A stretch of 64,000 nucleotides of DNA from a virus. The stretch lies in the UHGV virus genome UHGV-1353844. One strand, 5' to 3'. Below, in pieces: positions 862 through 45,181 of this stretch. A model generated the notes under the pieces. It did not search any database. It was not told where the DNA came from and worked only from the letters and a program-made list of their open reading frames with translations. Within the stretch, counting starts at the first letter, position 1. Each line of letters opens with the position of its first letter. Made by a program: the position numbers and the translations under genes.

Positions 862-1779
862 ATGATAGACAATGTGGAATCCAGGATCTCGACGAAGTTG
901 TACGATAAACCCACTATATTGTCCGTAGTTACGACGTCTAAGTGTAACCTAGACTGTAGTTTCTGCGGTGGAGCCTACTACATGAATCGTGAAGATTCGT
1001 CTCGTGCTTTTCAACGCGAACGTATCCTGGAATTACTACAAGAGAATCCAGCTATTAAGGAAATACATTGGACGGGTGGTGAACCGCTACTCGTCCAACG
1101 TAAGATTGAGGATTTCGTTAACGAACTGAAAGTGTCTCATCCGCACCTTGAGCATCACTTGTATACCAACGGCTTAAAACTGCGTAAATCGCATCTTACG
1201 CTGCTAAAAGACTTTGAGCATGTGTTTGTATCAATTGATGGCTACAAACGTTCTGAGCGCCCTTTTATGCGCTTTATTGAAGAGGATAGCCACGAAGCAC
1301 TGGAAGCGTTATACGAACTCGATAACTTCCAAACCTGGGCTGTGATTACGCGTGACCAGTTAGCCGATAAGCGCTGGTATGAAGATATTGTGGATTTACA
1401 TCGTGCGATGTACCACTATCGTCCCCGTGCGTTTTCTCTGATGTTTGATGCCCAAATGCCAAAACCGTTGTCTCCCGATCACATCATGAACTTCGTTTAT
1501 GGTTATTTAAAGATTCAGGAGAATATGGAACGGCTGAACGTCCAAACCGGAGAATCGTGCGGCGTGTCTGTCAGCAAGATTTTCGAAAACGAGTGTAATG
1601 TCTGTAGCGAAGAGTTGTATTTGAACGCAGATGGAACAGAACATCAGCTTCAGAATGCACCGGCTATCTTAAACGGTGGGTGCAATCAGCTTGCTTGCTC
1701 TATCGGGGTAGGTGCTTACGAGTACATTAAACGCGTGATTTATGCAGAGCGTAAAAGGATAAGCAAAGATGAGCAATAA
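862..1779 (+). CDS. radical SAM enzyme with C-terminal auxiliary Cys cluster
   Basis: CNLDCSFC (CX3CX2C) near N-terminus, GGEPLL SAM-binding motif, C-terminal Cys-rich region; SD tggag upstream. Confidence 0.75.
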   Translation: MIDNVESRISTKLYDKPTILSVVTTSKCNLDCSFCGGAYYMNREDSSRAFQRERILELLQENPAIKEIHWTGGEPLLVQRKIEDFVNELKVSHPHLEHHLYTNGLKLRKSHLTLLKDFEHVFVSIDGYKRSERPFMRFIEEDSHEALEALYELDNFQTWAVITRDQLADKRWYEDIVDLHRAMYHYRPRAFSLMFDAQMPKPLSPDHIMNFVYGYLKIQENMERLNVQTGESCGVSVSKIFENECNVCSEELYLNADGTEHQLQNAPAILNGGCNQLACSIGVGAYEYIKRVIYAERKRISKDEQ

Positions 1780-3103
1780 TGAAGCACCACGTTCACAACG
1801 TACTTACCAGGTGGTAACGAACCTGTCTTGTAACTTAGACTGTGAGTATTGTTACGAACGTAAGTATCCGCGTAATAACAAAGCGGCGGATATCGTGGAT
1901 TTCTTACACGCCTGTTTTGAGCGTGATAAAGATATTCCGAACATCGACGTCATTATTGATATCATCGGCGGCGAACCTTTTATGCAACCGAAACTGCTGT
2001 TAGCGGCGTTTGAAACCGCAGAACAGTTGTGTAAGGAGCATAATCGACCGTATATGTTCAGTATCTCCACGAACGGGACGTTGTTAGACCGTCCGTTAAA
2101 CCGTGAGATCGTCGAGCGTTGGAAAGACAAACTCTCCATCGGTGTGTCTATCGACGGGCTGCCAGAAGTCCATGACCGTTATCGTATCTTTACCACGACG
2201 CGTCAGGGTTCTTACGAAGCCGCTGTTCGTGGCTATAACTACTTAAAAGAAGTGGGTATTGCTGAACTGGGTATCAAGGCAACCTTTACAACCGAAACCC
2301 TCCCGCATTACGCGGCGAGTATGAAGTCGTTAATCGATATTGCGGGTGGTGGTACGATTTCGGGTAACGTGACGTACGAAGATATCCTTCCACGGAGCAT
2401 GGCAACGGATATTGCGTTGCAGATGATCGAGGTGATGGATTATTGGATTGAGAAAGGGCTGCACACCAATCCACGTAACGTGTTGTCCCACATCATTCCT
2501 GAAGGTCTGGATTTCCGTCAGATTTGGGACCCAGATTGGCGTGATAAACTGCTGTACGACGACACGCACCGTTATAACCCTGAACGTTTACGTCCGTTCT
2601 GTGGGACGTTGACGTTTATGACTTGTTTAGGTTTTGACCGTAAGGTGTATGGTTGTAACCGATTCATGTCAACGGTAACGTCACGCTCTGCGGTGTTTGA
2701 GTTAGTCGGTCGTGAGTTTGTTAGCTTAGACGGCGGGAAACTGCTGGAAGAGATTCAGACGCAATACACCAACTATCCTGAAACGTGCTTAGGTTGTCCG
2801 ATGAAACACGGTTGTGGGAGCTGTGCAGCTGCTTCCTACGAAAACGGTGAAGGGACACTGGAAGACCGTAAGGCGTACCACGCTGAACGACGTCAATGTG
2901 GTTGGACGACCGCAAAACTGATGGCGGCAGAATACTGGCGTCAACGTACAGGCACCGTCCACGCATCGTCACTGCACGATTCGTCTGTTTGTTACTGTCC
3001 GAAATGTACGCGTGAGCGTGAGCAAGCTAAACGTGCGTTAAATGCACAACCTACTGAGGCAAATAATGAAATCAATTCTGATCCACAATTTTACGAAGCG
3101 TAA
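1769..3103 (+). CDS. radical SAM enzyme with SPASM-type C-terminal domain
   Basis: CNLDCEYC motif, GGEPF motif, C-terminal CLGCPMKHGCGSCAAAS cluster; overlaps upstream gene by 11 nt. Confidence 0.75.
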   Translation: MSNNEAPRSQRTYQVVTNLSCNLDCEYCYERKYPRNNKAADIVDFLHACFERDKDIPNIDVIIDIIGGEPFMQPKLLLAAFETAEQLCKEHNRPYMFSISTNGTLLDRPLNREIVERWKDKLSIGVSIDGLPEVHDRYRIFTTTRQGSYEAAVRGYNYLKEVGIAELGIKATFTTETLPHYAASMKSLIDIAGGGTISGNVTYEDILPRSMATDIALQMIEVMDYWIEKGLHTNPRNVLSHIIPEGLDFRQIWDPDWRDKLLYDDTHRYNPERLRPFCGTLTFMTCLGFDRKVYGCNRFMSTVTSRSAVFELVGREFVSLDGGKLLEEIQTQYTNYPETCLGCPMKHGCGSCAAASYENGEGTLEDRKAYHAERRQCGWTTAKLMAAEYWRQRTGTVHASSLHDSSVCYCPKCTREREQAKRALNAQPTEANNEINSDPQFYEA

Positions 3104-18136: not shown

Positions 18137-18919
18137 TTAAACACGTGAACCATATATTGCACCTACTGCGTCCCATCTTGGCGCATTACCTCTAACGGCT
18201 GCACCAGCGGCTCCGCCGTTATATTCTGTACCGTTACCATGAGTATTACATCTTCCTCCAGCAGCACCGACATTACCACCCGAACCGCCTGTATATGCAC
18301 TAAGAGACCCCTCACCAACAGATCCTCTACCAGGAGCGGAAATAGTACCAGCAGCTGCACCGGAACTCATATGTGAGGAAGACCCACCAGCACCGAATGG
18401 GCGACCACCGCCACCACCAAATATTAGTCTACCCCTGTTACCGCCGCCACCGCCGCCACCGCCTCCGGCAATAGCGCCACGGTTGGTTATACGCAGTCTG
18501 TTTCCTATTCCGTTCTGTATTGCGGTTCCACCTGCACCGCCTGGTGAGTTAGAACCGCCGTTGCCTCCTCTGCCGTATACTGTAACCCCAGGATTGATGA
18601 TGAGTGTAATATACGAATTTGGAAGATTGCTAGGGAATTCTAAACAAGGAACCCCGCTACTATAAGACACTAAATCCCCTGTAATGGTCACAACGACAGC
18701 ATTAGAGCCTATAGAACGTAAATAGTTAATAAGCGTATCTTTATTGTAATTGTGATTAGCCCCGATCGAATACTGAACCTCTTTTGATTTTCCCGCCAAT
18801 TGCGACATCCAGCCTGGAACCGGCACACCAAGTGTGCGCATCGCGCCAGACATCCAATCGTTACCAGTTTCAGCTTTTGCTGAAGAACCAATCCAACCAC
18901 CTACGCCGACAACTGCCAT
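18137..18919 (-). CDS. glycine-rich protein immediately downstream of tail fibre (possible adhesin or tip protein)
   Basis: poly-Gly tracts (GGGGGGGGGN, GGGGRPFGAGG); start overlaps fibre stop (TAATG). Confidence 0.6.
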   Translation of the reverse strand: MAVVGVGGWIGSSAKAETGNDWMSGAMRTLGVPVPGWMSQLAGKSKEVQYSIGANHNYNKDTLINYLRSIGSNAVVVTITGDLVSYSSGVPCLEFPSNLPNSYITLIINPGVTVYGRGGNGGSNSPGGAGGTAIQNGIGNRLRITNRGAIAGGGGGGGGGNRGRLIFGGGGGRPFGAGGSSSHMSSGAAAGTISAPGRGSVGEGSLSAYTGGSGGNVGAAGGRCNTHGNGTEYNGGAAGAAVRGNAPRWDAVGAIYGSRV

Positions 18920-21900
18920 TAGGATCTTCCTTTAATTTCGTTAACCTCTTGACGCAACGCTTTCATACCCTCTACTAACAGCGCAATAACGCCATTGTAG
19001 TTTAGACGTAAACGTTTTTCGCCTGAAATGGCATCATCATCCTCAGACACAAGTTCAGGTAACGCTTCTAATGCGTCTTGAGCAATTAGACCTACCGAAG
19101 TGTTCCAACCGTCGTCTGGATGTTGAACCTCGTACAGATAGCCGGTAAGCGCTTCTAACCGATCCAAAGCCTTATCCAGCTTCACCAGATTACGTTTGTT
19201 GCGACGGTCAGAACGAATCTGTACGTCGTTAAACGAACCGTTACCGTTGCTAGAAATGTTATGACCAAAGGTTACTTGACCGTTAGAGTTATTAAAATAC
19301 AACGGACGTAGTCCGTTCCAGGAACCCGTTGCGGCTTGTCCGGAGTCGGTTACTAAGAAATAGGTATTGGCACCATCATTACGTAAAATGAAACCGCAGC
19401 TACCGTAAGCGATTCGGAAATCAGCATACTTCGTAACCAGTTTACCGTTAACCGTTAAATCGCCAGTGACAGTACCGCCGCTGTTCTTCAAAAACAGCGC
19501 ATCAATCCAGCCTGCAAATCCTGACTTATTGATGTATAAATTTCCATCATTTGCCAGAATGCCGCCACCCGGCGTCTTGAGAGGCTGACTCACATTTTGC
19601 AGCGTCAGCACACCATTCAATTGACCGCCAGATAATGGCAACGCCCCAACATCCGCAGCAGTTGGCTTGTTTTTCGTATTGTAAGCGCGACGCCAACCTG
19701 GTGAGTAAGCATCACCGTTATTTACGTAGATAAACTCCGCATTAGTGAGTGCGCCGCCGACGCTCGTCGTTGTGGGGGTCGTTATACGGATCGTGTAGTT
19801 GTTTGCGCTGTTACTAATCACTTCTATAACAGCCCCAGCTAACGGAATAACACCACAACCCGTCTCGCTGTTCGGTATGGACGCACTAGCAGCATAAGCC
19901 CATGCACAGCGAGCAACCCATGATTTTGTGGTAAACGCGCCGTTATTTTGCAATAACGTCACTAGCTGTGCTGTAGTTATTGCGCCGCCGTCTTTACCAG
20001 TCTCCAACCAACCAGTGGGCGAAGCCGGACAACCTATATCGGCAGGCCCTAACGATATATTTCTAGTACCGTCAAATGCGATACCGTTAATGGTACGCGC
20101 TGTCTGCAACTTTGTTGCCGTGGCTGCGTTTCCGGTAGTCGACTGATTACCCGTCTGGTTTACACCGGGCAGACTAATGTCTTGCGAACCGTCAAAGTTA
20201 ACACCGCCGATCTTACGTGCTGTTTGTAACTTAGTAGCGGTCGCTGCATTACCTGTCGTATTCTGGTTGCCTTGCTGGTTAACCCCCGGTAAATTGATAT
20301 CCCCAGTACCGTCAAAGGTAACGCCGCCGATTCTGCGAGCGGTTTTCAGTTTCGTCGCGGTAGCGGCATTGCCAGTAGTATCCTGATTACCGGTGGTATT
20401 TACACCAGGAATACTGTCACGGGCAGTATAAACTTGTGCCCAATCTGACCACGGCGCATCAGCCGTATCGCGTCGACTACGAATATAAACGGGTGCGTGT
20501 GCACCACTCGTGCCCGACCAACCAATTAACAACTCACCTTCGCCTAGCGCATTAGCACCACCTAAGTGCAGCAAGTTACCATAGGCGGTTGGATAACCGT
20601 TATTGTAAACTTCGTACATCTGGATACCAGGTGTACCCTTGTTCGACCCGGTCAGAGCGGTAACCCGTCCACGACCTACCAAGGTGTTGATATTGATGTC
20701 TCCAGAGCCATCGAATTTCACACCGTTAATATTTCTGGCGGTTTGAAGTTTAGTGGCTGTCGCGGCGTTACCTGTGGTGTTTTGATTACCTTGTTGGTTA
20801 ACACCTGGGAGGTTAACGTCGCCGCTGCCGTCGAAAGCGACCCCGCCAATTCTACGCGCAGTCTGGAGCTTAGTGGCGGTTGAAGCATTGCCGGTTAACT
20901 CACCTGCTAACCCTTTTGCAAAGGTCTGTTTCTCTGCCCAAGTGTGGGCTGCGTTCAACACAGGCATCTGTCGTGGCGTAATCGTACGGCTACCCTTCTC
21001 GCCAGCGATACGTACTGCAAAGAAGCGATAGTTAGCAGTAGACACTGTACCGCGCCAGACCAACATACTCCGACCAGTACCGGTGTCCTCTGACGCCCCT
21101 ACGAGAATACTGACCAAGTTACCGTCAATAACACCCCAATCCATTCCCGCAGGAATGTTTTTCATGGTATTCAACGGTGTACTTATCATCTGGCCAGGAA
21201 CGAAATCGAAGGTTTGCCAGTCTAACGGATCGACCTTGGCAGCAACCCCACCGATCCCTAAAGCCAACGGGAGTGAATAGGATGTGAAAATCTCTCGCCA
21301 TTCGCTCCAGGCGTTTCCTGTACGAATTCGTTGGAACTTGCGACCTTTCGTAGTTGCGCCTGTACCGTATGTGGTATAATTTTGTTCAACGCCTGAACCG
21401 TCTAAGCGTAAGGTAACTTCGCAAACACCTAACAAGGTTGCGCCAGCAGAGTCTGTTAACGGACCGTCAGTAGCCTCACCGGTAACACTAAAACGACCAG
21501 GTTTAGTTAAGTCATTAAAGCTACCCTTATAGTAGGCACCGTCTACCTGATACCCAACTTGAATCCAATCTTCCCACTGTGGATTAGACGCATCCCAAGT
21601 CGCAGTCAACCCACGGACATACATCGTACCACGACGAGTGGTGTAACGTTGCATACGTCCGTAGAGACCACCTTCCATTACTTCTAATACACCTTGAGCA
21701 TTACCACCTTCTTCGGGATAATGACGATCGAACGTCGCAAGAGAAGAACTGGAGTTACGCCACTGACCCATGTGTTCAACACCACCTAAAGTGTTAAGGT
21801 CAATAGTGGTGGAGAGCGGACGGTTCGCGGTAGTTGTCATTCTCCAGGGCGACCAAGGGCCGTTAGTACCGTTCCAGGTTCCTGTTAAACGACGAGTATA

Positions 21901-23385
21901 GACGTTACCGTTACGTATGGTAAAACGTTGGCTTCCGCTGTAGTTACCTGCTTTGAATACCTCTAAGTAACCAACTGCATCGTCTTCCGGGAAGTTCTTT
22001 GCAATTGTTGCATTCGTAGACGTGGCTTTAGACCAGACACCCATAAACGCTTCGACTGGGCCGAAGGTGTTGATATCCGCATCTACTGCCATTTCCCCAT
22101 TAAACTTCAAATACGTCTCTGCTGACAACCCGATGTTCTTCGCGAAGGTGACTTTATCTGGAATATCGGCACCGTTAGAACTGCGTTGCATAGCACCCGC
22201 AGCTTTATCAACAGTGGTTTTCAAACCCAGGAAGTTAATGATATCTGCCGTCGACCCTTTCGCTAACAAATCACGCGCAGTCGAGGTGAAATCCGCTAAC
22301 CCTACCTGATTACTACCGGTAAAGTAAGGGAGTTTGTTTGCAGCGGTGGTGACTGCGGCAATCGCTGTCAGTAACGGACTTAACGGCTGTTTACCCGCGA
22401 GTTGGTTCGTCATCGTTGTCGCAAAGTTAGGATCGTTTCCTAACGCAGCTGCAATTTCTGATAACGTATCTAACGTCTCGGGTGAAGAGTCCACTAATTC
22501 AGCAATCGCTTGCCGTACCCATGCGGTCGTTGAGACGCTCGTGTCGTTAGAATCCGAAGCAGGTGTTGGTGCTTTTACCACACCGGTAAAAGTTGGGTTG
22601 TGACGGTTTGCTTTTAACTGCAAATCTTCATTTAACTGCTTAACCGTTGACGGCGTAGCCGCTTCAGTAACAGAGTCACTGCTTAAGGTATTATTAAGTC
22701 TAACGATACCTTTACTGGTCGTTGTTGCATCAACGTTACCTTTTGCAGCGATTTCTTCTGCACGCTTAGCCGCTGCCTCAGAACGCGTTGCCGCATTCTC
22801 TGCGGTTTCTTTGTCTGTGGTAACTTGCGTTGCTGTAGCTTCTACAGCGGCTTTTGACGACTCTACCGACGCGACAGCTTCGTTAACTGCCGTAAGCGAC
22901 TGTTCGACTTGACCGGCTTGTGTGGCAACAGTTTCTGCTTTCTTCGTAACGGTAGTCACCGCTTGTGTGACGTTGGCCTCGCTTGCCGCTACCGCTTGCG
23001 CTTTCTCATTAACGGACACAACCTGGGTATCTACCGCCGTTTTCGCGGCTAACACTTCAGTGTGTTTTGTACCGACTTCAGTTGCTTTTTCGGTTACAGT
23101 TTGCGCTTGTTGAGCAACTGTAGCCGCAACGGTGTCAGTTTGTTGTTTTGCTGTTTCTGCTAAATTCTTTGCTTGTGTAGCCTGAGTTGCAGCTTCTTGT
23201 GATTGTGTTGCTGCTGTTTGTGCATCAGACACCGCATTACGTACGGTGTCAATATCTGCAACGATCTCACGGACAGGTAACTTATAATCTTTCTCATCCT
23301 TGGAAAAAAGTAAAACACCTTCACCTATATCCCCGGTGTATGGACGTAAATCGTGTAAACGAATTTTCTTTACCGCTTTAGCCAT
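18919..23385 (-). CDS. long tail fibre protein with N-terminal anchor, A/T/Q-rich coiled coil, five NTTGNAATATKLQTAR repeats and C-terminal intramolecular chaperone (S74-type autoproteolytic) domain
   Basis: 1488-aa ORF; C-terminal SDRRNKRNLVKLDKALDRLEALTGYLYE segment; repeat motif typical of phage fibre repeats. Confidence 0.85.
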   Translation of the reverse strand: MAKAVKKIRLHDLRPYTGDIGEGVLLFSKDEKDYKLPVREIVADIDTVRNAVSDAQTAATQSQEAATQATQAKNLAETAKQQTDTVAATVAQQAQTVTEKATEVGTKHTEVLAAKTAVDTQVVSVNEKAQAVAASEANVTQAVTTVTKKAETVATQAGQVEQSLTAVNEAVASVESSKAAVEATATQVTTDKETAENAATRSEAAAKRAEEIAAKGNVDATTTSKGIVRLNNTLSSDSVTEAATPSTVKQLNEDLQLKANRHNPTFTGVVKAPTPASDSNDTSVSTTAWVRQAIAELVDSSPETLDTLSEIAAALGNDPNFATTMTNQLAGKQPLSPLLTAIAAVTTAANKLPYFTGSNQVGLADFTSTARDLLAKGSTADIINFLGLKTTVDKAAGAMQRSSNGADIPDKVTFAKNIGLSAETYLKFNGEMAVDADINTFGPVEAFMGVWSKATSTNATIAKNFPEDDAVGYLEVFKAGNYSGSQRFTIRNGNVYTRRLTGTWNGTNGPWSPWRMTTTANRPLSTTIDLNTLGGVEHMGQWRNSSSSLATFDRHYPEEGGNAQGVLEVMEGGLYGRMQRYTTRRGTMYVRGLTATWDASNPQWEDWIQVGYQVDGAYYKGSFNDLTKPGRFSVTGEATDGPLTDSAGATLLGVCEVTLRLDGSGVEQNYTTYGTGATTKGRKFQRIRTGNAWSEWREIFTSYSLPLALGIGGVAAKVDPLDWQTFDFVPGQMISTPLNTMKNIPAGMDWGVIDGNLVSILVGASEDTGTGRSMLVWRGTVSTANYRFFAVRIAGEKGSRTITPRQMPVLNAAHTWAEKQTFAKGLAGELTGNASTATKLQTARRIGGVAFDGSGDVNLPGVNQQGNQNTTGNAATATKLQTARNINGVKFDGSGDININTLVGRGRVTALTGSNKGTPGIQMYEVYNNGYPTAYGNLLHLGGANALGEGELLIGWSGTSGAHAPVYIRSRRDTADAPWSDWAQVYTARDSIPGVNTTGNQDTTGNAATATKLKTARRIGGVTFDGTGDINLPGVNQQGNQNTTGNAATATKLQTARKIGGVNFDGSQDISLPGVNQTGNQSTTGNAATATKLQTARTINGIAFDGTRNISLGPADIGCPASPTGWLETGKDGGAITTAQLVTLLQNNGAFTTKSWVARCAWAYAASASIPNSETGCGVIPLAGAVIEVISNSANNYTIRITTPTTTSVGGALTNAEFIYVNNGDAYSPGWRRAYNTKNKPTAADVGALPLSGGQLNGVLTLQNVSQPLKTPGGGILANDGNLYINKSGFAGWIDALFLKNSGGTVTGDLTVNGKLVTKYADFRIAYGSCGFILRNDGANTYFLVTDSGQAATGSWNGLRPLYFNNSNGQVTFGHNISSNGNGSFNDVQIRSDRRNKRNLVKLDKALDRLEALTGYLYEVQHPDDGWNTSVGLIAQDALEALPELVSEDDDAISGEKRLRLNYNGVIALLVEGMKALRQEVNEIKGRS
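20040..20420 (-). repeat. imperfect ~120-bp tandem DNA repeats inside fibre gene encoding the GNAATATKL repeats
   Basis: three successive units ending ccgtcaaa(g)ttaacaccgccgat / ccgtcaaaggtaacgccgccgat. Confidence 0.6.
20693..20895 (-). repeat. second block of the same fibre repeat
   Basis: units gccatcgaatttcacaccgttaat / gccgtcgaaagcgaccccgccaat. Confidence 0.55.
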
Positions 23386-30960: not shown

Positions 30961-31482
30961 CTACGGGTTAAAAGGTAGCGGCTTGCAATCCCGCTTTTTC
31001 AACTCTTCTACTAACTCAGGTAATGTACACCAACGTTTAAATTTGTTGTTGGCTTTAAAGTGGCCGAGAATCTCCTCTACGCGTTCAATAGACCACTTCC
31101 CTTTACCCACGTTATCCAAATCTTTACGTACCGAGAGCGTCTCAATGGTAAACGCTAACTCTGAACTATCCGAGTGGTCGTACAACAATCTTACTGGTGT
31201 AGATTGGTGTAGCGTAACACGCCACCCTGACTCTTTAGCCCAGTAGACGTCTTTAATTCGACCACTGACGTCAATTACGGAACTGATATAAGTCCAGTCA
31301 TCTTCCAGTTTATTCTCTTCAGCAGTTAATGCTTCTTCTAATCGTAAAGAGTTAGGAGTCGGAATCCACCAACCGTATTTACTGTAATAGTCGTCTACTA
31401 CAGTAATACCTTCGTAATACAGATATTGTGTTTTTGTATTAACGAAAATTTCATCGCCAATTAAGACAGCGTTTATCTTCAT
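30961..31482 (-). CDS. hypothetical protein
   Basis: 173-aa ORF. Confidence 0.6.
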   Translation of the reverse strand: MKINAVLIGDEIFVNTKTQYLYYEGITVVDDYYSKYGWWIPTPNSLRLEEALTAEENKLEDDWTYISSVIDVSGRIKDVYWAKESGWRVTLHQSTPVRLLYDHSDSSELAFTIETLSVRKDLDNVGKGKWSIERVEEILGHFKANNKFKRWCTLPELVEELKKRDCKPLPFNP

Positions 31483-31967
31483 CGTAAGTGCTTCCTGTAA
31501 AATAAGTCGTACGTTTGTGATGAAGCTGTATCAATCGAACCTACTAAGGGAATGATATTCTTTTCGGTTATACCTGTTGCCCATGCTGCTCGAGCAAAAC
31601 CTTGACCCGAACCCGTTGCCCAAACCGTGTTTTTATTCAGTACACGAGATTCAAATTTACCCTCTAGCAGCCCGAGCCAGTGTGTTTCCTTAGCTGTAAA
31701 AATGATAACCTGATCGAAAAGTTGTTCTTTTTCGATAAGATCTTTAAATATCTCTTCAACCTTAGTTCGCTTTTCTTCGATCAAATATTTTTCTGCTCCG
31801 GACATTATCGTCGTTTTCCAGAGATCCGAGTCCAATACACGTTCCCCAGTGTAAACAACGAATTTGTTTTTGTATTTGTGTAATTTAGGAAGCTCTTTAA
31901 CTGTGCCGCCGTAATCAACCAACCGATCAGCTAAAATGTAATCCTTTGTTACTAATACCGTTGTCAT
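31479..31967 (-). CDS. HslV-like proteasome-type threonine peptidase (tentative); start ATG at 31967 giving Met-Thr-Thr N-terminus
   Basis: MTTVLVTKD N-terminus, ATGSGQGFARAAW resembles the HslV GSGG.YA.AAA motif; SD GAGGTG. Confidence 0.45.
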   Translation of the reverse strand: MTTVLVTKDYILADRLVDYGGTVKELPKLHKYKNKFVVYTGERVLDSDLWKTTIMSGAEKYLIEEKRTKVEEIFKDLIEKEQLFDQVIIFTAKETHWLGLLEGKFESRVLNKNTVWATGSGQGFARAAWATGITEKNIIPLVGSIDTASSQTYDLFYRKHLR

Positions 31968-31980
31968 CACACACCTCGAA

Positions 31981-32020
31981 GAAAAATAAAAGTACCCTCT
32001 CTCCATTAGGAGAGAGGGGC
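31981..32020 (-). terminator. rho-independent terminator
   Basis: ccctctctcc-atta-ggagagaggg hairpin, A-run before on plus strand. Confidence 0.65.
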
Positions 32021-32025
32021 ACTGC

Positions 32026-32295
32026 TTAAATCTTACGACTGCTACCGTAGCAGCCACGACCGGCTGTCGTTTTCGCAGCACTGACAGGTGCTAACGCAGC
32101 CATCGTACCATCGGCCTTAACAATGTGTAAGTTACCTGCGCGAACCAGACCTTTAAAGGTAATCTTCACACCCTTGCGTAAACTCTTCACTTCATACCCG
32201 TCGAGTTTGAGTGTTTTAACTTTTTCAGGTTTACCTTCTTCGTAATAGGAAAGAACATTACCCGCACGTTTCTCAACAATGTAAATCTTAGCCAT
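32026..32295 (-). CDS. small Lys-rich protein
   Basis: 89-aa ORF with own promoter-like motif upstream. Confidence 0.5.
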   Translation of the reverse strand: MAKIYIVEKRAGNVLSYYEEGKPEKVKTLKLDGYEVKSLRKGVKITFKGLVRAGNLHIVKADGTMAALAPVSAAKTTAGRGCYGSSRKI

Positions 32296-32396: not shown

Positions 32397-32729
32397 TTAG
32401 TGTGGTTCTGGTTCGACATAAATTTCCCCAAACACGTATGCGGTTCCGGCTTCATTCGTCGGTTTAGCAACACACCACATCCATTCTTTGGTTTCAGGTT
32501 TTTGCCAGGACAACAAAAGAACACCGTCACAAATTTCAGAGGTATCCACTTCTGGATGATACAACATAAATTCGTTGTCGTTGCCATCCATTACAACAAA
32601 CTGCCCTTCTTCGATTCTTTCGAATTTCGCGACGCCTACCGCGATCGGTGCGTCATCAACAGTAAACGACACGTCACGTTTTGGCAAATCACGGTGAATA
32701 GCACTTAACCACATCAGATTGTTCCTCAA
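32397..32729 (-). CDS. hypothetical protein
   Basis: 110-aa ORF; alternative overlapping ORFs in other frames are weaker. Confidence 0.5.
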   Translation of the reverse strand: MRNNLMWLSAIHRDLPKRDVSFTVDDAPIAVGVAKFERIEEGQFVVMDGNDNEFMLYHPEVDTSEICDGVLLLSWQKPETKEWMWCVAKPTNEAGTAYVFGEIYVEPEPH

Positions 32730-32767: not shown

Positions 32768-32808
32768 GTAAAATAAATACACCCTCTCTCCAAACGGAGA
32801 GAGGGGCA
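32768..32808 (-). terminator. rho-independent terminator, stem nearly identical to 31981-32020
   Basis: ccctctctcc-aaac-ggagagaggg. Confidence 0.65.
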
Positions 32809-32810
32809 GC

Positions 32811-33317
32811 TTACAGCAGATTCTCTTCGCGATCATCTACCAAGATAGACGTAATGACATAACGCGCTAAGCGACTACGCGCTTCTTCAGTTTCTTCGTC
32901 GGACGGTAATGGCTCACCTGCTGGCGCACACAACGTCAGTCCTGATTCACGAAGCTGTTCCGTGTACTCTTCTACGGCAGTTTCAAACGTACCACGAATA
33001 CCTGCGACAGTGTCCATAATCTCATCAGTTGGGATGATGGATTCTTTCAACACAGCATGGGCATCAGTAGGTTCGACGGAGTCTAAGTTCAGTTCGACCA
33101 GCAACGCTTTCTTCGCCAGACAGTCAGTGATAAAACACGACAGAGCTTTTTCAAACTCATCTAAACTGAATTCGGTGTCGTCAGAGGCACCGGTGATGAG
33201 CTGACCGTAACGGTTAAACAGCTCTTTACAACGTGTTTCATAATCAGCATCGATATCACGAACACCGAGGTCGAAATCGTGTTGTTCGAGCTGATTAAAA
33301 TCCAGAGTCTCACTCAT
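32811..33317 (-). CDS. highly acidic protein (candidate DNA mimic, speculative)
   Basis: 168-aa ORF with very high Asp/Glu content. Confidence 0.6.
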   Translation of the reverse strand: MSETLDFNQLEQHDFDLGVRDIDADYETRCKELFNRYGQLITGASDDTEFSLDEFEKALSCFITDCLAKKALLVELNLDSVEPTDAHAVLKESIIPTDEIMDTVAGIRGTFETAVEEYTEQLRESGLTLCAPAGEPLPSDEETEEARSRLARYVITSILVDDREENLL

Positions 33318-33356
33318 TATTAAAGTCTCCAGTTAAGAGGTCATATTACCTGCTGA

Positions 33357-33584
33357 CTAGAGGGCCAGCGTTAACCCCGTGTGGGTTTGTACTGAACCAA
33401 CACCGTCACGCGCTTTCGCTTTTGCGATAAGTTTGTCAATCACACGTTGGTGACTGCGCGTAATAACTTTACCCGGATAACCGATAATGAGCGCATTTTC
33501 GCTGTTGATTACCGCCGAGAATTCGTTATCACCTGCGACGTAAACAATCTGTTTGTTTTTGGTTACAATACGTTTGATTTCCAT
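33357..33584 (-). CDS. hypothetical small protein
   Basis: 75-aa ORF. Confidence 0.45.
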   Translation of the reverse strand: MEIKRIVTKNKQIVYVAGDNEFSAVINSENALIIGYPGKVITRSHQRVIDKLIAKAKARDGVGSVQTHTGLTLAL

Positions 33585-33593
33585 TCATCATCC

Positions 33594-34367
33594 TTAAAAG
33601 ATAAAGTGGCCGGTTAATGGTTCTACCTCAACTCCACCCATAGACGGTGGGGCTGTGTATGGAAACGTGAGGCGAACAGTTGCGCCTTTCAGATAAGCAA
33701 TACGGAAATACGTGGTTAGCAGTGCGTTTCCGTAAGTACAGTCGTTATAGAAAAAACCTTCGGTGGCAAACGTCTTTTCATTGATTTTCGAATAGACTAA
33801 GATACCTTCAACCTTACCGTCTTTACGACAACACAGCCCTTCTGCCGCACCTACGGCTAACAACCCTAAACAGTGCGTGTCGAGGCTGACATTAACAACC
33901 TTAGGAATCGTAAACGTCTCTTCTAACGTTAGGGATTCAACGTCGACCACGTCAGGTAAGTCAGTACGTACTTCTGGCTTCTCAGTAATCGTAAGGTCAT
34001 AATCGATAGACGTTGGTTGCATACCCAAAAACGTCATTAACTGATCACGACGTTTTAGGTCATTAGCAGGGTAGGTAACGTCAAACATCTTCACGTTTAA
34101 CAGACGTTTGAGTTGGGCGAAGTTGATGTTCTTCTTCGCAAACACAACGATTGCGGACATATAGAAAATCTTACCGTCTGCACGCCCTGAAAAGATGCCC
34201 TGTAATTGGTTAGTATTCGAAAGGATGATAAAGGTAGGGTCTTCAGATTCCCGAATGATTTCCTTTTCCATTAACCCTTTGCGTACACGGGTTAACGAAA
34301 CCATTTTACCTTCTACACCAATCGCTAAATGGTCATTACGATAATCGTGGATATCCACTATACGCAT
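33594..34367 (-). CDS. hypothetical protein translationally coupled to dam
   Basis: 257-aa ORF; start overlaps dam stop by 1 nt. Confidence 0.6.
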   Translation of the reverse strand: MRIVDIHDYRNDHLAIGVEGKMVSLTRVRKGLMEKEIIRESEDPTFIILSNTNQLQGIFSGRADGKIFYMSAIVVFAKKNINFAQLKRLLNVKMFDVTYPANDLKRRDQLMTFLGMQPTSIDYDLTITEKPEVRTDLPDVVDVESLTLEETFTIPKVVNVSLDTHCLGLLAVGAAEGLCCRKDGKVEGILVYSKINEKTFATEGFFYNDCTYGNALLTTYFRIAYLKGATVRLTFPYTAPPSMGGVEVEPLTGHFIF

Positions 34368-35182
34368 TAGAGCACTCCTAACAATTCCGTTACCGTTTTA
34401 CGAGCAGCACCTGACGCACCCATGTATCGCCCTACTTCTACAGAACGCCATTCGAACCCGTAATAAATCTCACGCGTTAGTAACGTATCTGCATTGGACA
34501 ACACAACGCTATTCCCCTTCTCAACCTGCTTAAACAGCGCTCTGGCGAGTTCTCGATGGTCAGCCTGGGAAAACTCCTTCCGATGGTATTGGGCGTGTTT
34601 AGCGGTCTCTGAGAGCGGTATATAAGGTGGGTCTGCGTAAATCACGCTGTCTTCCGGTGTACGCTCTAAAACTGTTCGGAAATCTTCACAAACAATTTCT
34701 AAGTATTCCGGTTCTTGACAACGTTTAGCCCAACCACGAATCTCTTCTAACGGGTAATACACACCGTTAGGATAGCGACCAAACGGAACGTTAAAACCAC
34801 CGCTGCCGTTGTAACGACACATCCCGTTAAAACCGTGACGCATTAAATACAGAAACATTGCAGCACGGTCTAACGGAGCCATATCCGTTTCGCGATTAAA
34901 CAGTTCTCGTCTCTCCATATACTTAATACAATCGTTACCGTCTTCGAATAGCGGTTTCGACTTTAAGATAAGTTCTTCAGGTTGGTCTTTCGCCACGTTC
35001 AGCAACTGAATTAAGTCAGGGTTAGAGTCAGCAAGAATGTAACGTTTATAACGTGTGTTCAAAAACACCGACCCTGCACCAACAAACGGTTCAACGAATG
35101 TTGTACGTTCAGGTAAGACTTGTAATAAGGTGTCGATAATCCGCGATTTGCCACCCATCCACTTTATAATTGGTTTATGCAT
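34367..35182 (-). CDS. dam: DNA adenine methyltransferase (Dam, GATC N6-A)
   Basis: near full-length similarity to E. coli Dam: KWMGGKSR, VEPFVGAGSVFLN, FLYLMRHGFNGMCRYN, DPPY motif. Confidence 0.9.
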   Translation of the reverse strand: MHKPIIKWMGGKSRIIDTLLQVLPERTTFVEPFVGAGSVFLNTRYKRYILADSNPDLIQLLNVAKDQPEELILKSKPLFEDGNDCIKYMERRELFNRETDMAPLDRAAMFLYLMRHGFNGMCRYNGSGGFNVPFGRYPNGVYYPLEEIRGWAKRCQEPEYLEIVCEDFRTVLERTPEDSVIYADPPYIPLSETAKHAQYHRKEFSQADHRELARALFKQVEKGNSVVLSNADTLLTREIYYGFEWRSVEVGRYMGASGAARKTVTELLGVL

Positions 35183-36161
35183 TAATTCCGCCTTGTAACG
35201 ATGACATTTCGTCGCCTAACACTAACTCGACGCGGTTTTTCCGACGCTCCCAACTGACGACATCGTCGTCGCGCACTAAAACAAATTCGTACTCGTAGGG
35301 ACGGAATTTAAACAAATCTACAGCCAGGTGTCTAAATGCTGGGTTGTTATTGTAACACCCTATTTCTAATGGTGCTGCTGTTGTCGATGCAATCTGTAAA
35401 GCACGGTACAACAACGCACGCCCAATCCCACGGCCCCGGTGTGATTCACTTACCGCAATGGCTTTTAGTTCGCACTCGCTAAGATTGCGTGATTTAACTT
35501 GCACCACACCCACAATGTCGTTACCGTCCATCCAAACGTAAGTGTAGTGATTGACGTGACGCACTAACTCCACCAGCGTTTCAACTTGCGGCATTATTTG
35601 TCGAGAACGCGTCACAGGGTCAGCATTGATGTTTTCAACAACGCTAGTGCCAAACAACGTCATGAGCTGTTCACGTTGTGCTCTGGTTAAGTCTTTATAG
35701 AAGTCGCCGGAGACGTTCTTCACGTTCGTCGGTAAAGTGACATCCAGTAGCTTACGCGTACCTAAACGATATGCTGTGTGGGTATGTCTAAACCCTAAAT
35801 CGTTAAGCTCAGCAATTTCTTCCACACCTCTGGCAATTCGGTTAAGGTACGTAAACCCAGTATAGTCAAGTACCAATAGAAGGCTCAGTTTGTTCAAACA
35901 CCCAGGTACAATTTCATGCATATACAAGCAGTGTAACGTTGGGTCACCGTAAATGTGTTTTGTGATGATAAACCCTTGGATTGTTTTTCCTTTTTGTAAA
36001 GAGAACGTATTCAGCTCAGTATTGCACAGTGCTTCACGAATCGCCGCACCGTTAGGCCCCGTTAAACATGCCTGAAGCTGAGGATTGCGAATATCTCTAC
36101 GGGTTAAGCGTCCTACGGTTAAATCAGAAGAGGTTCTTTCTATCGTTTTACGATATACCAT
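35175..36161 (-). CDS. protein with C-terminal GNAT acetyltransferase domain
   Basis: HRGRGIGRALLYRALQ acetyl-CoA binding motif. Confidence 0.6.
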   Translation of the reverse strand: MVYRKTIERTSSDLTVGRLTRRDIRNPQLQACLTGPNGAAIREALCNTELNTFSLQKGKTIQGFIITKHIYGDPTLHCLYMHEIVPGCLNKLSLLLVLDYTGFTYLNRIARGVEEIAELNDLGFRHTHTAYRLGTRKLLDVTLPTNVKNVSGDFYKDLTRAQREQLMTLFGTSVVENINADPVTRSRQIMPQVETLVELVRHVNHYTYVWMDGNDIVGVVQVKSRNLSECELKAIAVSESHRGRGIGRALLYRALQIASTTAAPLEIGCYNNNPAFRHLAVDLFKFRPYEYEFVLVRDDDVVSWERRKNRVELVLGDEMSSLQGGINA

Positions 36162-36204
36162 TTTAATACTCCTTATCGGCTTTCCTCACAACAAAAGAAA
36201 AAGT

Positions 36205-36236
36205 TGTAAAAAGAAAAAGGGAGCCGAAGCTCCCTG
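36205..36236 (-). terminator. rho-independent terminator
   Basis: gggagc-cgaa-gctccc hairpin, A-run before on plus strand. Confidence 0.6.
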
Positions 36237-44051: not shown

Positions 44052-44528
44052 TTAATAAATTTTATCCGCAACAGAGAGAAAGATGGGCGTGTTTTCGATA
44101 AAATCCACCAAATATCCTTCTTCCGGCGGGGCGTATGACGAAACAACGTTACCGTTCGTCATACGAAAATACCGACGAGAGTCGCTGGCGATATACCAAC
44201 GGTCAATCTGGTAGCCTTTTTTCGAAAAGAAACACAGGCCGTCAATGTTCGAAGGGTGGACACGACACGTCACCATTTGACGATCGGAATTCAGTTGAAC
44301 GTACTGCAATAAGAACGAACCCACACCGAAACGTCGAGAACCTTCTGCTACCACCAGATAGATAAGATTGCCCGGTTCCCAAATCGCGATACCGTGCGTA
44401 ATGTCGTCTTCTATCGCTAACGTAATACGAACAGGTGTTTCGCGTATCGAGTTTAAGTCCTTGATGTATTCGCGTAATTGTGGAAATTTAGCGGAGATTT
44501 TGTCTTCAGTAATATCTAACTGCTGCAT
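44052..44528 (-). CDS. hypothetical protein
   Basis: 158-aa ORF. Confidence 0.55.
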   Translation of the reverse strand: MQQLDITEDKISAKFPQLREYIKDLNSIRETPVRITLAIEDDITHGIAIWEPGNLIYLVVAEGSRRFGVGSFLLQYVQLNSDRQMVTCRVHPSNIDGLCFFSKKGYQIDRWYIASDSRRYFRMTNGNVVSSYAPPEEGYLVDFIENTPIFLSVADKIY

Positions 44529-45181
44529 TATTGTTCCCCAATTGACATAACGTTATTAACGAATTCAGCCCACGTAGTGTTCTCGCCGGAAGTAAATAAA
44601 CTGCTAAGCGGAACATTTCGGTGTTTTGGAATAACCGCATCGAGTTTATTTACTGGAACTTCGCTCCATAGCGCCCAGCCGTACAACCCCTCCACCGTTT
44701 TTCTCTCACCACGCAATACTGGTACCCACCAAGCAAACTGTACGAATCTTTTACCGCGACAAATTTTGAGGGTGGTGGTAAAACCGTGGTCTAACATCCG
44801 TACGTCATCAAATTTACAGTTAATTGAGAAAAGGCCGTAGCGGGTGAGTAATTTTCTTATCTGAAACGTCAGCTCAATCTGATAACTCTTCAGTTTATCG
44901 ACGTCCACATAAACCCGACCTTTCCCAACCCCGATTCCTTTCTGTTCTAAATACTCTGCGATTAACGCAGACGTACTCCCTTCTACACCAGGGCAATCTA
45001 ATCCGCCAGATAAAGGTACTGCATTATAATAACGATGCAGCGTCTCCTGGAAAGCCGTCAGCACAAATTCCTCGTCTTTAATAAAATCGATGACCTCCCC
45101 ATTAGAGGCGGACAACGGGGCAAGCTTCAATTCCCAGATAGGAATCAGTAGCGTTCTGGTCATTAAACGTAGTGGTTCCAT
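44528..45181 (-). CDS. hypothetical protein
   Basis: 217-aa ORF. Confidence 0.55.
   Translation of the reverse strand: MEPLRLMTRTLLIPIWELKLAPLSASNGEVIDFIKDEEFVLTAFQETLHRYYNAVPLSGGLDCPGVEGSTSALIAEYLEQKGIGVGKGRVYVDVDKLKSYQIELTFQIRKLLTRYGLFSINCKFDDVRMLDHGFTTTLKICRGKRFVQFAWWVPVLRGERKTVEGLYGWALWSEVPVNKLDAVIPKHRNVPLSSLFTSGENTTWAEFVNNVMSIGEQ

Follow-up and report, generated by a model that had tools for sequence, protein, structure and literature searches.

A Dam methyltransferase module with uncharacterised partner genes in a Chimalliviridae jumbo phage

We describe a locus of a Chimalliviridae jumbo phage, probably a member of the proposed 'Bapsvirus', that is a real, ordinary Dam module with uncharacterised partners. 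In our best explanation, to which we assign a probability of about one half when it is taken as a whole, the five genes of this locus constitute one terminator-bounded transcription unit of a nucleus-forming phage. The unit would have a non-early promoter of its own, with the non-virion RNA polymerase as the probable transcribing enzyme, and the strongly acidic protein encoded at its end would most likely act as an electrostatic decoy, that is, a folded polyanion which binds a nucleic-acid-binding protein. The original prediction for this locus had described the gene positions, overlaps, motifs and acidity, and every one of these sequence observations holds up. The anti-restriction reading that it attached to the locus is possible but unsupported.

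Gene arrangement, boundaries and transcription

All five open reading frames lie on the minus strand at the positions listed in Table 1. The stop of the GNAT-328 gene and the start of the Dam gene overlap in ATGCATAA (8 nt), and the stop of the Dam gene and the start of the gene for the 257-aa protein overlap in TAATG (1 nt). Both overlaps were read from the sequence and bear out the proposal that the Dam gene is translationally coupled on both sides. The original prediction had overlooked the 75-aa basic gene that sits between the 257-aa and acidic genes, the terminators at both ends of the five-gene unit and the synteny of the whole block with SPN3US gp104-gp109.

Table 1. Features of the Dam locus in the window, meaning the whole 64,000-nucleotide stretch of viral DNA that was analysed
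Feature	Coordinates	Strand	Basis or remark
Terminator of upstream 227-aa gene	36218..36235	-	Intrinsic; upstream boundary of the unit
Candidate promoter element TTTTTAC-N13-15-T(G/A)TG	36187..36212	-	Upstream-region alignment
GNAT-328, two-domain GNAT protein, 328 aa	35175..36161	-	PF00583; SPN3US gp104 homologue
Dam-271, predicted orphan GATC-type N6-adenine DNA methyltransferase, 271 aa	34367..35182	-	SPN3US gp105 homologue
257-aa protein, putative diverged GNAT-family paralogue	33594..34367	-	SPN3US gp106 family
75-aa basic protein	33357..33584	-	SPN3US gp108 family; phrog_7896
168-aa acidic orphan protein, predicted five helices	32811..33317	-	SPN3US gp109 family
Closing intrinsic terminator	32782..32805	-	5 nt past the stop codon of the acidic gene

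Hairpin-plus-T-run terminators flank the unit at 36235-36218 and 32805-32782, and none lies inside it. The upstream terminator consists of an AGGGAGC-TTCG-GCTCCCT stem followed by TTTTTCTTTTT, and its hairpin is kept in 11 aligned relatives with compensatory changes in the stem. The closing terminator forms a ten-pair stem (CCCTCTCTCC-GTTT-GGAGAGAGGG) that is followed by a T-rich tail.

Alignment of the upstream regions of the window and 10 relatives revealed an invariant TTTTTAC and a nearly invariant T.TG, and TTTTTAC was found 5' of the unit in 14 of 14 loci. The promoter of the phiKZ non-virion RNA polymerase (nvRNAP) has been described as TATG, with the G as the start site (PMC5312081), and from the resemblance to this motif we infer that TTTTTAC-N13-15-T(G/A)TG is a candidate non-early promoter of the unit, used by the non-virion RNA polymerase. 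Across the whole window, the bipartite motif occurs 8 times compared to 4.2 +/- 2.1, which is not a significant enrichment. A scan for sigma-70 promoters (6 sites, 10.5 expected) was uninformative; these phages use their own polymerases. No motif of the type used by the early virion RNA polymerase was detected upstream of or within the unit, either in the window or in 14 relatives, whereas the flanking genes have one. An early promoter lies at 37003-36992, beyond the upstream terminator, and read-through from this promoter past the terminator into the unit may occur.

The block is syntenic with the annotated genes gp104-gp109 of Salmonella phage SPN3US. Megablast of the locus against INPHARED returned no match, and its relatives were reached at the protein level only. 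The block is also present in Asesino, and experiments have demonstrated that both SPN3US and Asesino, which are cultivable, form a nucleus (PMC13282480, PMC11724907). TMK and UvsX of Asesino have been localised as GFP fusions (PMC11724907), and knock-down by antisense oligomers or Cas13a is established for chimalliviruses (PMC12571901). The main text of the SPN3US proteomics papers does not mention gp104-gp110, and our literature search found no experiment or published dataset on any gene of the unit.

The methyltransferase and GATC depletion

The second gene of the unit was predicted to encode a clear Dam with DPPY and FxGxG motifs, and profile scores and full-length alignment agree with this assignment. 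Dam-271 matches PF02086 with 195.9 bits (cutoff 22, E 1.3e-57) and TIGR00571 with 254.7 bits (cutoff 114.85), its alignment with E. coli Dam (2G1P, E 1e-63) spans the full length and keeps FVGAGS, NGMCRYN, PFGRY and DPPY, and it is 67-73% identical to the Dam proteins of SPN3US and phiEaH2. In its translation, aligned to 2G1P, the SAM-binding FxGxG reads FVGAGS and the catalytic DPPY is part of ADPPYIP. The score against the E. coli equivalog NF008152 (255.6 bits) is under the cutoff of 441, and Dam-271 is therefore a member of the Dam subfamily and not the host orthologue. The GATC-contacting residues of E. coli Dam, which we take to be K9, the L122/R124/N126 loop and P134/R137/Y138, lie in elements (KWMGGK, NGMCRYN with L122 replaced by M, and PFGRY) that match 2G1P column for column.

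Among the neighbouring genes, Pfam, PADLOC and NCBIfam identified no nuclease, restriction-modification or defence-type gene, and the best PADLOC model for Dam-271 is 'orphan MTase' (E 9e-87), in line with its earlier description as an orphan methylase. At the level of sequence, we show that Dam-271 bears all the hallmarks of a GATC N6-adenine methyltransferase and is an orphan Dam. Like the orphan Dam enzymes of T2, T4 and P1 (D12 class, GATC), it stands as an orphan in a lytic phage whose enterobacterial hosts are Dam-positive, and it shares with these and with E. coli Dam the FxGxG, DPPY, NG.CRYN and PFGRY elements. [quoted passage not shown]

Despite the presence of Dam, the observed/expected ratio of GATC in the window is 0.45. 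GATC is depleted in the window and in every relative, while TCGA and GTAC are near 1, and CTGCAG (the PstI site) is also depleted. We propose that Dam would methylate the few GATC sites that remain on replicating phage DNA, and that packaged genomes would thereby bear the same mark as a Dam-positive enterobacterial host, a view which assumes that host Dam is excluded from the phage nucleus. Phage RisingSun encodes a solitary Dam together with none of the partners found here, and Dam therefore does not need them.

The GNAT-family proteins flanking Dam

GNAT-328 carries the GNAT domain that had been predicted for it, with a PF00583 match of 46.4 bits (cutoff 20.7) that is confined to residues 198-279, and the protein also matches phrog_8663 (E 5e-45). 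It was detected in 12 of the 14 relatives. Searches of the PDB with the family profile returned generic GNATs, namely small-molecule and N-terminal acetyltransferases, at E about 1e-6, and the match to RimI is sub-threshold (NCBIfam, 26.8 versus 86.4 bits). GNAT-328 resembles RimI-like and generic GNATs in its C-terminal domain and in an RxxGxG acetyl-CoA loop, which reads RGRGIG in the window and RKRGIG in SPN3US and is partly degenerate in the Erwinia relatives. In contrast to these enzymes, GNAT-328 carries an additional domain of some 180 aa at its N-terminus and has a local paralogue, the 257-aa protein, that is devoid of the loop.

The gene for the 257-aa protein directly follows Dam in 14 of 14 loci. 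Comparison of its family with the GNAT-328 family by hhalign gave a probability of 83.5% (E 8e-6) over 201 columns, with a score of 47.1 as opposed to at most 25.8 among 120 shuffles. The 257-aa protein has no sequence match in Pfam or the PDB, and its AF2 model, built from a shallow alignment, is unusable (pLDDT 35); the relation to the GNAT proteins is therefore one of remote homology only. Invariance in the family is limited to columns M1, G20, L90, L167, A171, G173, K227 and H254, and a conserved acetyl-CoA loop is absent, with TYGNAL, EYAQEF or DFGREF in the aligned region. These comparisons indicate that the 257-aa protein is a remote, diverged paralogue of GNAT-328. For the counter-defence role that had been suggested for both proteins, we find no direct support, one of the two being a diverged GNAT paralogue that lacks the conserved loop.

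A GNAT-superfamily protein that is genetically tied to Dam in an enterobacterial phage recalls Mom of phage Mu, a Dam-regulated, GNAT-fold adenine N6 acyltransferase. We rejected a Mom-type DNA acyltransferase because the hhalign probability against Mu Mom is 0.3% for the GNAT-328 family and 0.1% for the 257-aa family, and because Iyer et al. report the Mom family from jumbo phages of group 2 alone (PMC7824862).

The acidic protein and the anti-restriction question

The 168-aa protein has the very high Asp/Glu content that first drew attention to it. With 40 D+E and 14 K+R (net charge -26, pI 4.10, 23.8% D+E), it is the most acidic product among the 69 window ORFs of at least 120 aa, and its charge per residue is -0.155 compared to -0.074 for the next-ranked ORF. 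It matches phrog_8221 (E 1e-56), and AF2 predicts a protein of five helices (pLDDT 83, pTM 0.62) that is folded and not disordered, disorder having been considered at the outset as evidence against a DNA mimic. The family comprises only 17 clusters in 1.84 billion representatives, and its members keep a net charge of -18 to -26 even where identity falls to about 27%. The family alignment has 19 columns that are at least 80% acidic, five invariant basic and several invariant polar residues, and two conserved motifs, QHDFDL near the N-terminus and LVDDREE near the C-terminus. In the most divergent member (E about 1e-4) the net charge is only -3, and neither Dam nor the basic partner is found within 8 kb. 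One sequence (P0063) seemed to repeat the N-terminal motif eight times, but it proved to be block-scrambled and not a real repeat protein. Fold searches with the acidic protein matched no solved structure or structural neighbour.

Directly 5' of the acidic gene always lies the gene for the 75-aa basic protein (pI 9.9, net charge only about +4 or +5), also in two distant metagenomic lineages, L020, in which the two genes overlap by 4 nt, and L026. The basic protein has an invariant KAK.RDG motif in the family alignment and gave no match in Pfam and PDB profile searches. Based only on charge, foldedness and conservation, we consider it most likely that the acidic protein is the electrostatic decoy of our best explanation. 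Its specificity would come from the two terminal motifs, possibly together with the basic partner, and its target could be a host defence protein or a phage protein.

The core order of Dam, a variable gene, the small basic gene and the acidic gene is found in 14 of 14 relatives and in both distant lineages, in which the GNAT-328 and 257-aa families were not detected. The gene order from TMK to a 110-aa gene is also conserved across all relatives, which appear collinear over the compared stretches (roughly 14 kb), and adjacency is therefore weak evidence of shared function. This weakens the 'classic anti-restriction pairing' of Dam and acidic protein that had been proposed, and the two genes may be linked because their order was inherited and not because they share a function. 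It is conceivable, if unlikely, that the unit merely holds unrelated non-structural genes in a frozen order and that the acidic protein does not mimic nucleic acid at all but, for instance, chaperones or escorts basic phage proteins or acts in association with the nucleus. Such an arrangement would fit the fixed order around the unit, the constant position of the basic gene in front of the acidic one, the orphan fold of the acidic protein and the RisingSun Dam, which, judging from gene content, would work alone. However, the trio of Dam, basic gene and acidic gene has remained linked in both distant lineages despite replacement of the intervening and surrounding genes, and the charge of the basic partner is too small to neutralise the -20 to -26 of the acidic protein.

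Ocr is the first gene expressed by T7, and both ArdA and Ocr are similar to the acidic protein in size and charge. Like Ocr (gp0.3) and ArdA, the acidic protein is a small, folded and very acidic phage protein whose charge is conserved across homologues, and it has been likened to such mimics. If it were one, it would block type I restriction or BREX-type enzymes and form a two-pronged module with Dam, to which the GNAT proteins would add further counter-defence. Besides the net charge of a confidently folded protein, the conserved linkage of the acidic gene with Dam points in this direction, as do the depletion of GATC and CTGCAG, which shows restriction-type selection on the phage DNA, and the much faster evolution of the accessory genes (25-48% identity, as opposed to 67-73% for Dam). 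Comparison with known mimics including Ocr, ArdA and Arn, however, gave neither sequence nor fold similarity; the ArdA Pfam domain and the three-domain ArdA fold were not found, PADLOC has no match for the acidic protein, and the protein is outside the Ocr and ArdA families. A further difference from Ocr is that the acidic gene has no early promoter motif in front of it, whereas genes adjacent to the unit do have such a motif. The conserved residues of the acidic protein, which include basic and polar positions as well as the two terminal linear motifs, further set it apart from Ocr and ArdA. Its invariant basic and polar residues resemble an interface for a specific protein more than a surface shaped like DNA. 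Moreover, the EPI vesicle and the nucleus reportedly make Chimalliviridae resistant to DNA-targeting CRISPR and to restriction of types I and II, and the DNA of this family is reported to be shielded from restriction enzymes (PMC13282480, PMC12908238). We regard an Ocr/ArdA-like mimic as distinctly unlikely.

Phage T4 both modifies its own DNA and counters modification-dependent nucleases with Arn and IPI*. By analogy, the target of the acidic protein could be a defence that depends on methylation, for example a nuclease of type IV or of the DpnI-like kind, or a PUA-Cal-HAD-like sensor of m6-dAMP, and its inhibition would offset the liability of the phage's own methylation. As in T4, a modification enzyme and a candidate acidic inhibitor would occur in one phage, here in one transcription unit, and such a function would explain the co-transcription of the acidic gene with Dam. 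Confident family members occur only next to a Dam, the homologue that has no Dam nearby is not acidic, and GATC is depleted although the sites would be methylated, which fits methylated GATC as a liability. In addition, Dam-derived m6-dAMP triggers a defence system that is blocked by several DNA mimics (PMC12871103). All of this is purely circumstantial, however, and the single contrasting lineage is the most divergent member of the family. The collinearity of the compared stretches again tells against it, selection against unmethylated sites would explain the GATC depletion equally well, and the acidic protein has neither homology nor fold similarity to Arn, nor the fold of another mimic. The analogy is conceptual only, and we consider an inhibitor of this kind very improbable.

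Also quite improbable, in our estimate, is the broader proposal that Dam, the basic protein and the acidic protein form a previously unrecognised module of nucleus-forming phages, in which the phage methylates its own GATC sites and the acidic orphan-fold protein, alone or aided by the basic one, disables a host factor able to sense or cut DNA that is m6A-marked or contains GATC. If this were true, the acidic protein would represent a new structural class of nucleic-acid mimic that is tied to the phage's own modification enzyme, and chimalliviruses would need DNA-level counter-defence despite their nucleus.

Finally, phages that form a nucleus are generally regarded as largely safe from DNA-targeting immunity and as having few DNA-modification genes, yet the enterobacterial subgroup of Erskinevirus, Seoulvirus and the proposed Bapsvirus keeps a highly conserved Dam and shows strong depletion of GATC and PstI sites. 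This subgroup also keeps the fast-evolving partner genes, including the one for the extremely acidic orphan protein. Phages of the subgroup turn up often in bacterial assemblies and are under consideration for therapy against Salmonella (PMC12768965), and there is therefore practical value in knowing their methylation state. If the partners are not involved in counter-defence, the locus is a well-annotated orphan Dam with hypothetical neighbours; if they are, the nucleus would be insufficient as protection for these phages, and a new mimic fold would join those already known.

Anatomy and lineage of the Dam unit

We found that the five genes are genuinely organized as one conserved transcription unit, in which Dam is an orphan methylase. 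The original prediction had described its genes correctly, with reading frames, overlaps and a clear Dam orthologue as we see them; absent from it were the 75-aa gene and the terminators. ATGCATAA is common to the 328-aa stop and the 271-aa start, TAATG is common to the 271-aa stop and the 257-aa start, and gaps of 9 and 39 nt separate the last two gene pairs (257/75-aa and 75/168-aa), with a Shine-Dalgarno-like sequence at both. Since terminators lie at both ends and our coding-strand scan found none between them, the five genes constitute one terminator-bounded unit. This operon anatomy is a new point; homologues of the genes are already annotated in SPN3US-like phages, and our literature search found no paper addressing them.

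Features of the Dam unit and promoter-like motifs in the window
Feature	Coordinates	Strand	Basis or remark
328-aa protein (GNAT)	36161-35175	minus	ORF
271-aa protein (Dam)	35182-34367	minus	ORF
257-aa protein	34367-33594	minus	ORF
75-aa protein (basic)	33584-33357	minus	ORF
168-aa protein (acidic)	33317-32811	minus	ORF
Terminator, strong hairpin and T-run	36235-36218	minus (coding strand)	terminator scan; just 5' of first gene
Terminator, strong hairpin and T-run	32805-32782	minus (coding strand)	terminator scan; 5 nt past last stop codon
GATA[TG]ATATTAC-(about 6N)-G motif	13134-13123, 16753-16742, 32348-32337, 37003-36992, 58123-58112	minus	window scan
Promoter-like T[TA]TTAC-N12-16-T[AG]TG	37759-37735, 36211-36187, 32773-32749, 45229-45205	minus	sequence pattern

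The downstream terminator shares its 10-bp stem (CCCTCTCTCC/GGAGAGAGGG) with another minus-strand terminator at 32018-31995. The latter falls within a mechanically called 200-aa GTG ORF (31479-32081; weak HslV-like peptidase match, phrog_1040), so the true start of that gene is probably further downstream, near 31967.

The Dam protein passed the Pfam PF02086 model (E 1.3e-57), scored 254.7 bits against the NCBIfam Dam subfamily model (cutoff 114.85), had 'orphan MTase' as its top PADLOC model and aligned with E. coli Dam 2G1P along its entire length (E 1e-63). In this alignment it retains the FVGAGS, DPPY, NG.CRYN and PFGRY segments, the last two of which we take to be the GATC contacts of E. 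coli Dam. Together with the finding that no neighboring gene resembles a nuclease, these matches make the predicted GATC specificity and orphan status well supported. The jumbo phage RisingSun carries a solitary Dam (36% identical) on the strand opposite to all its neighbors, so Dam does not need the partner genes of this unit.

A megablast search against GenBank phages gave no match. By tblastn, Dam shares 67-73% identity with the Dam annotated in Salmonella phage SPN3US and in Erwinia phages phiEaH2, Stratton and Asesino, jumbo phages of ~240 kb each, and further window genes are phiKZ-like in type, among them those for the major head protein, virion proteins, a polymerase and a helicase. 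The gene order matches that of SPN3US from gp100 (TMK) through gp104 (GNAT), gp105 (Dam), gp106, gp108 and gp109 to gp110, with no counterpart of gp107 in the window. The nearest relatives, 88-99% identical, are ~220-226 kb contigs, some of them metagenomic and others from assemblies of Salmonella and Shigella, which fits 'Bapsvirus', a genus lately proposed within Chimalliviridae (PMC12768965). Both SPN3US and Asesino have been shown to form a nucleus (PMC13282480; PMC11724907). Elsewhere, a 444-aa radical SAM domain protein (1769-3103, plus strand; phrog_1802, E 8e-114) lies near the window start, and separate stretches of a 1488-aa tail-fiber protein (18919-23385, minus strand) match 56 different PHROG tail-fiber families, which suggests a mosaic receptor-binding protein.

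Conserved linkage and GNAT-derived neighbors

The order [GNAT]-Dam-gp106 family-(0 to 2 extra genes)-small basic-acidic-110 aa recurs in 14 of 14 IMG/VR loci, with GNAT undetectable in two (the phiEaH2 and Asesino types). As these loci are collinear across the ~14 kb compared, their linkage alone is weak evidence, and two distant metagenomic lineages, L020 and L026, are more telling. Identity to the window's proteins there is 27-30% for the acidic protein and 37-42% for Dam, and the genes run in the order D12 methylase, one unrelated small gene, the 75-aa basic homologue (34% identity, HMM E ~1e-27) and the acidic protein, with the GNAT-328 and 257-aa families not detected. This points to Dam, the small basic and the acidic genes as the conserved core, a new point. 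The basic gene always lies right next to the acidic one, overlapping it by 4 nt in L020. The most marginal acidic-family member (P0070, E ~1e-4) has a net charge of only -3, and within 8 kb of it there is no Dam and no basic partner, a contrast that, as a single case, is suggestive.

In L022 (8778-15509) and L023, 223-kb contigs of a distant jumbo-phage lineage, a marginal non-acidic homologue is followed by seven tandem DUF7941 paralogues of 265-513 aa. The database entry P0063 (158 aa) is an SPN3US-type acidic protein cut into ~20-aa blocks and rejoined in reverse order; we rejected it as a natural repeat protein, and it resembles an artefact or a decoy. The next gene downstream of the unit (110 aa, 32397-32729, minus strand; SPN3US gp110 family, phrog_9789), present in 14 of 14 relatives and with its own promoter-like element, also encodes an acidic protein (net ~-11 to -14 in 105-111 aa) and probably starts at ATG 32714 (MWLSAIH...) and not at TTG 32729.

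GNAT models match only residues ~190-280 of the 328-aa protein. In PDB the profile of its family matches generic acetyltransferases, both small-molecule and N-terminal (E ~1e-6), and its top NCBIfam match is RimI, below threshold. This agrees with the RimI-like GNATs described in the phiKZ group (Iyer et al., PMC7824862). The 257-aa protein had no Pfam, PADLOC, NCBIfam or PDB sequence match, and its AF2 model, built on a shallow alignment, reached no more than pLDDT 35. When its 12-member family alignment was compared with that of GNAT-328, hhalign gave a probability of 83.5% (E 8e-6, 201 columns) and a score of 47.1, far above the ≤25.8 (probability ≤4%) of 120 column- or block-shuffled GNAT-328 versions, and unrelated alignments gave ≤0.3%. 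This argues for a remote paralogy between the 257-aa protein and the GNAT protein encoded upstream of it, a new point; the acetyl-CoA loop is not conserved in its family, so it may be catalytically inactive.

Relatives carry one or two further ~250-275-aa genes after the 257-aa homologue, and across loci L008-L017 the ~245-276-aa genes between Dam and the small basic gene number one in the window's clade, two in SPN3US and phiEaH2 and three in the ChrisDB and Caitlin types. One extra family scored 35.6 against the 257-aa family, above the null, and the other was marginal; one ~245-276-aa family that beats the shuffle null is itself acidic (net -10 to -17). Dam therefore lies amid a GNAT-derived family that has expanded locally and diverges fast. 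We also tested, and rejected, a relationship with Mom of phage Mu, an adenine acyltransferase with a GNAT fold. In L026, three successive small GNAT genes (734-2285; 146-172 aa) lie upstream of TMK beside a phiKZ inner-body-protein homologue, and this part of the genome seems to have undergone GNAT expansion repeatedly.

Probable promoters and timing

The motif GATA[TG]AT[AT]T[TC][AC][TC], followed by G ~6 nt later, occurs five times in the window (0.5 expected under uniform placement), always intergenic and on the coding strand. It closely resembles the AR9 virion-RNAP early promoter, AAATATATATTAT-(6N)-G, which all phiKZ-related phages are said to have in common (PMC5312081), so the five copies are probably early promoters. 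Those at 37003-36992 and 32348-32337 precede the 227-aa gene just 5' of the unit and the downstream 89-aa gene; neither the unit nor the sequence immediately preceding it has a copy, and this holds for all 14 relatives as well as for the window. The stretch running from the upstream terminator to the start of GNAT has instead an invariant TTTTTAC followed 13-15 nt on by T(G/A)TG, conserved in 11 aligned phages with otherwise diverged flanks. Given that the phiKZ non-virion polymerase recognizes TATG, with G as start site (PMC5312081), we infer a probable non-early promoter for the unit, a new point. The bipartite pattern is not statistically enriched window-wide (8 matches against 4.2 ± 2.1), so cross-phage conservation carries this argument; read-through from the upstream early promoter is possible. 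Sites of the related T[TA]TTAC class, likewise not enriched window-wide, sit 20-41 nt 5' of the start codons of TMK, the GNAT unit, the 110-aa gene and the gene at 44528-45181, and the one before the GNAT unit is kept in 10 relatives.

Proposed anti-restriction role and GATC avoidance

The original prediction read Dam and the acidic, DNA-mimic-like protein as an anti-restriction pairing. The charge and foldedness of this protein agree with that reading, but it fell outside the known mimics in every test of sequence or fold membership. Its predicted orphan helical fold, combined with a conserved extreme charge, is a new point. An inhibitor acting as a first line in the manner of Ocr should be transcribed very early, and the probable non-early timing therefore counts modestly against the proposed model. 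We treat the anti-restriction interpretation as a hypothesis, one that fits poorly with both this timing and a nucleus-forming lifestyle.

GATC occurs 120 times in the window against ~265 expected (observed/expected 0.45), a depletion, itself a new point, second among palindromic tetramers only to CTAG (0.35); CTGCAG, the PstI site, is present a single time where ~19 copies are expected. In every related locus (L001-L026) GATC lies at 0.20-0.52, with TCGA and GTAC near 1. The depletion fits a danger posed by unmethylated GATC, with Dam as a self-mark in Dam-positive hosts, and equally, on the data at hand, a danger posed by methylated GATC through m6A-dependent nucleases or m6-dAMP sensing (PMC12871103); it does not separate the two. 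The phage lineage thus shuns GATC and at the same time carries the gene for its predicted methylase, a pattern which shows that the phage DNA is under sequence-specific selection despite the nucleus.
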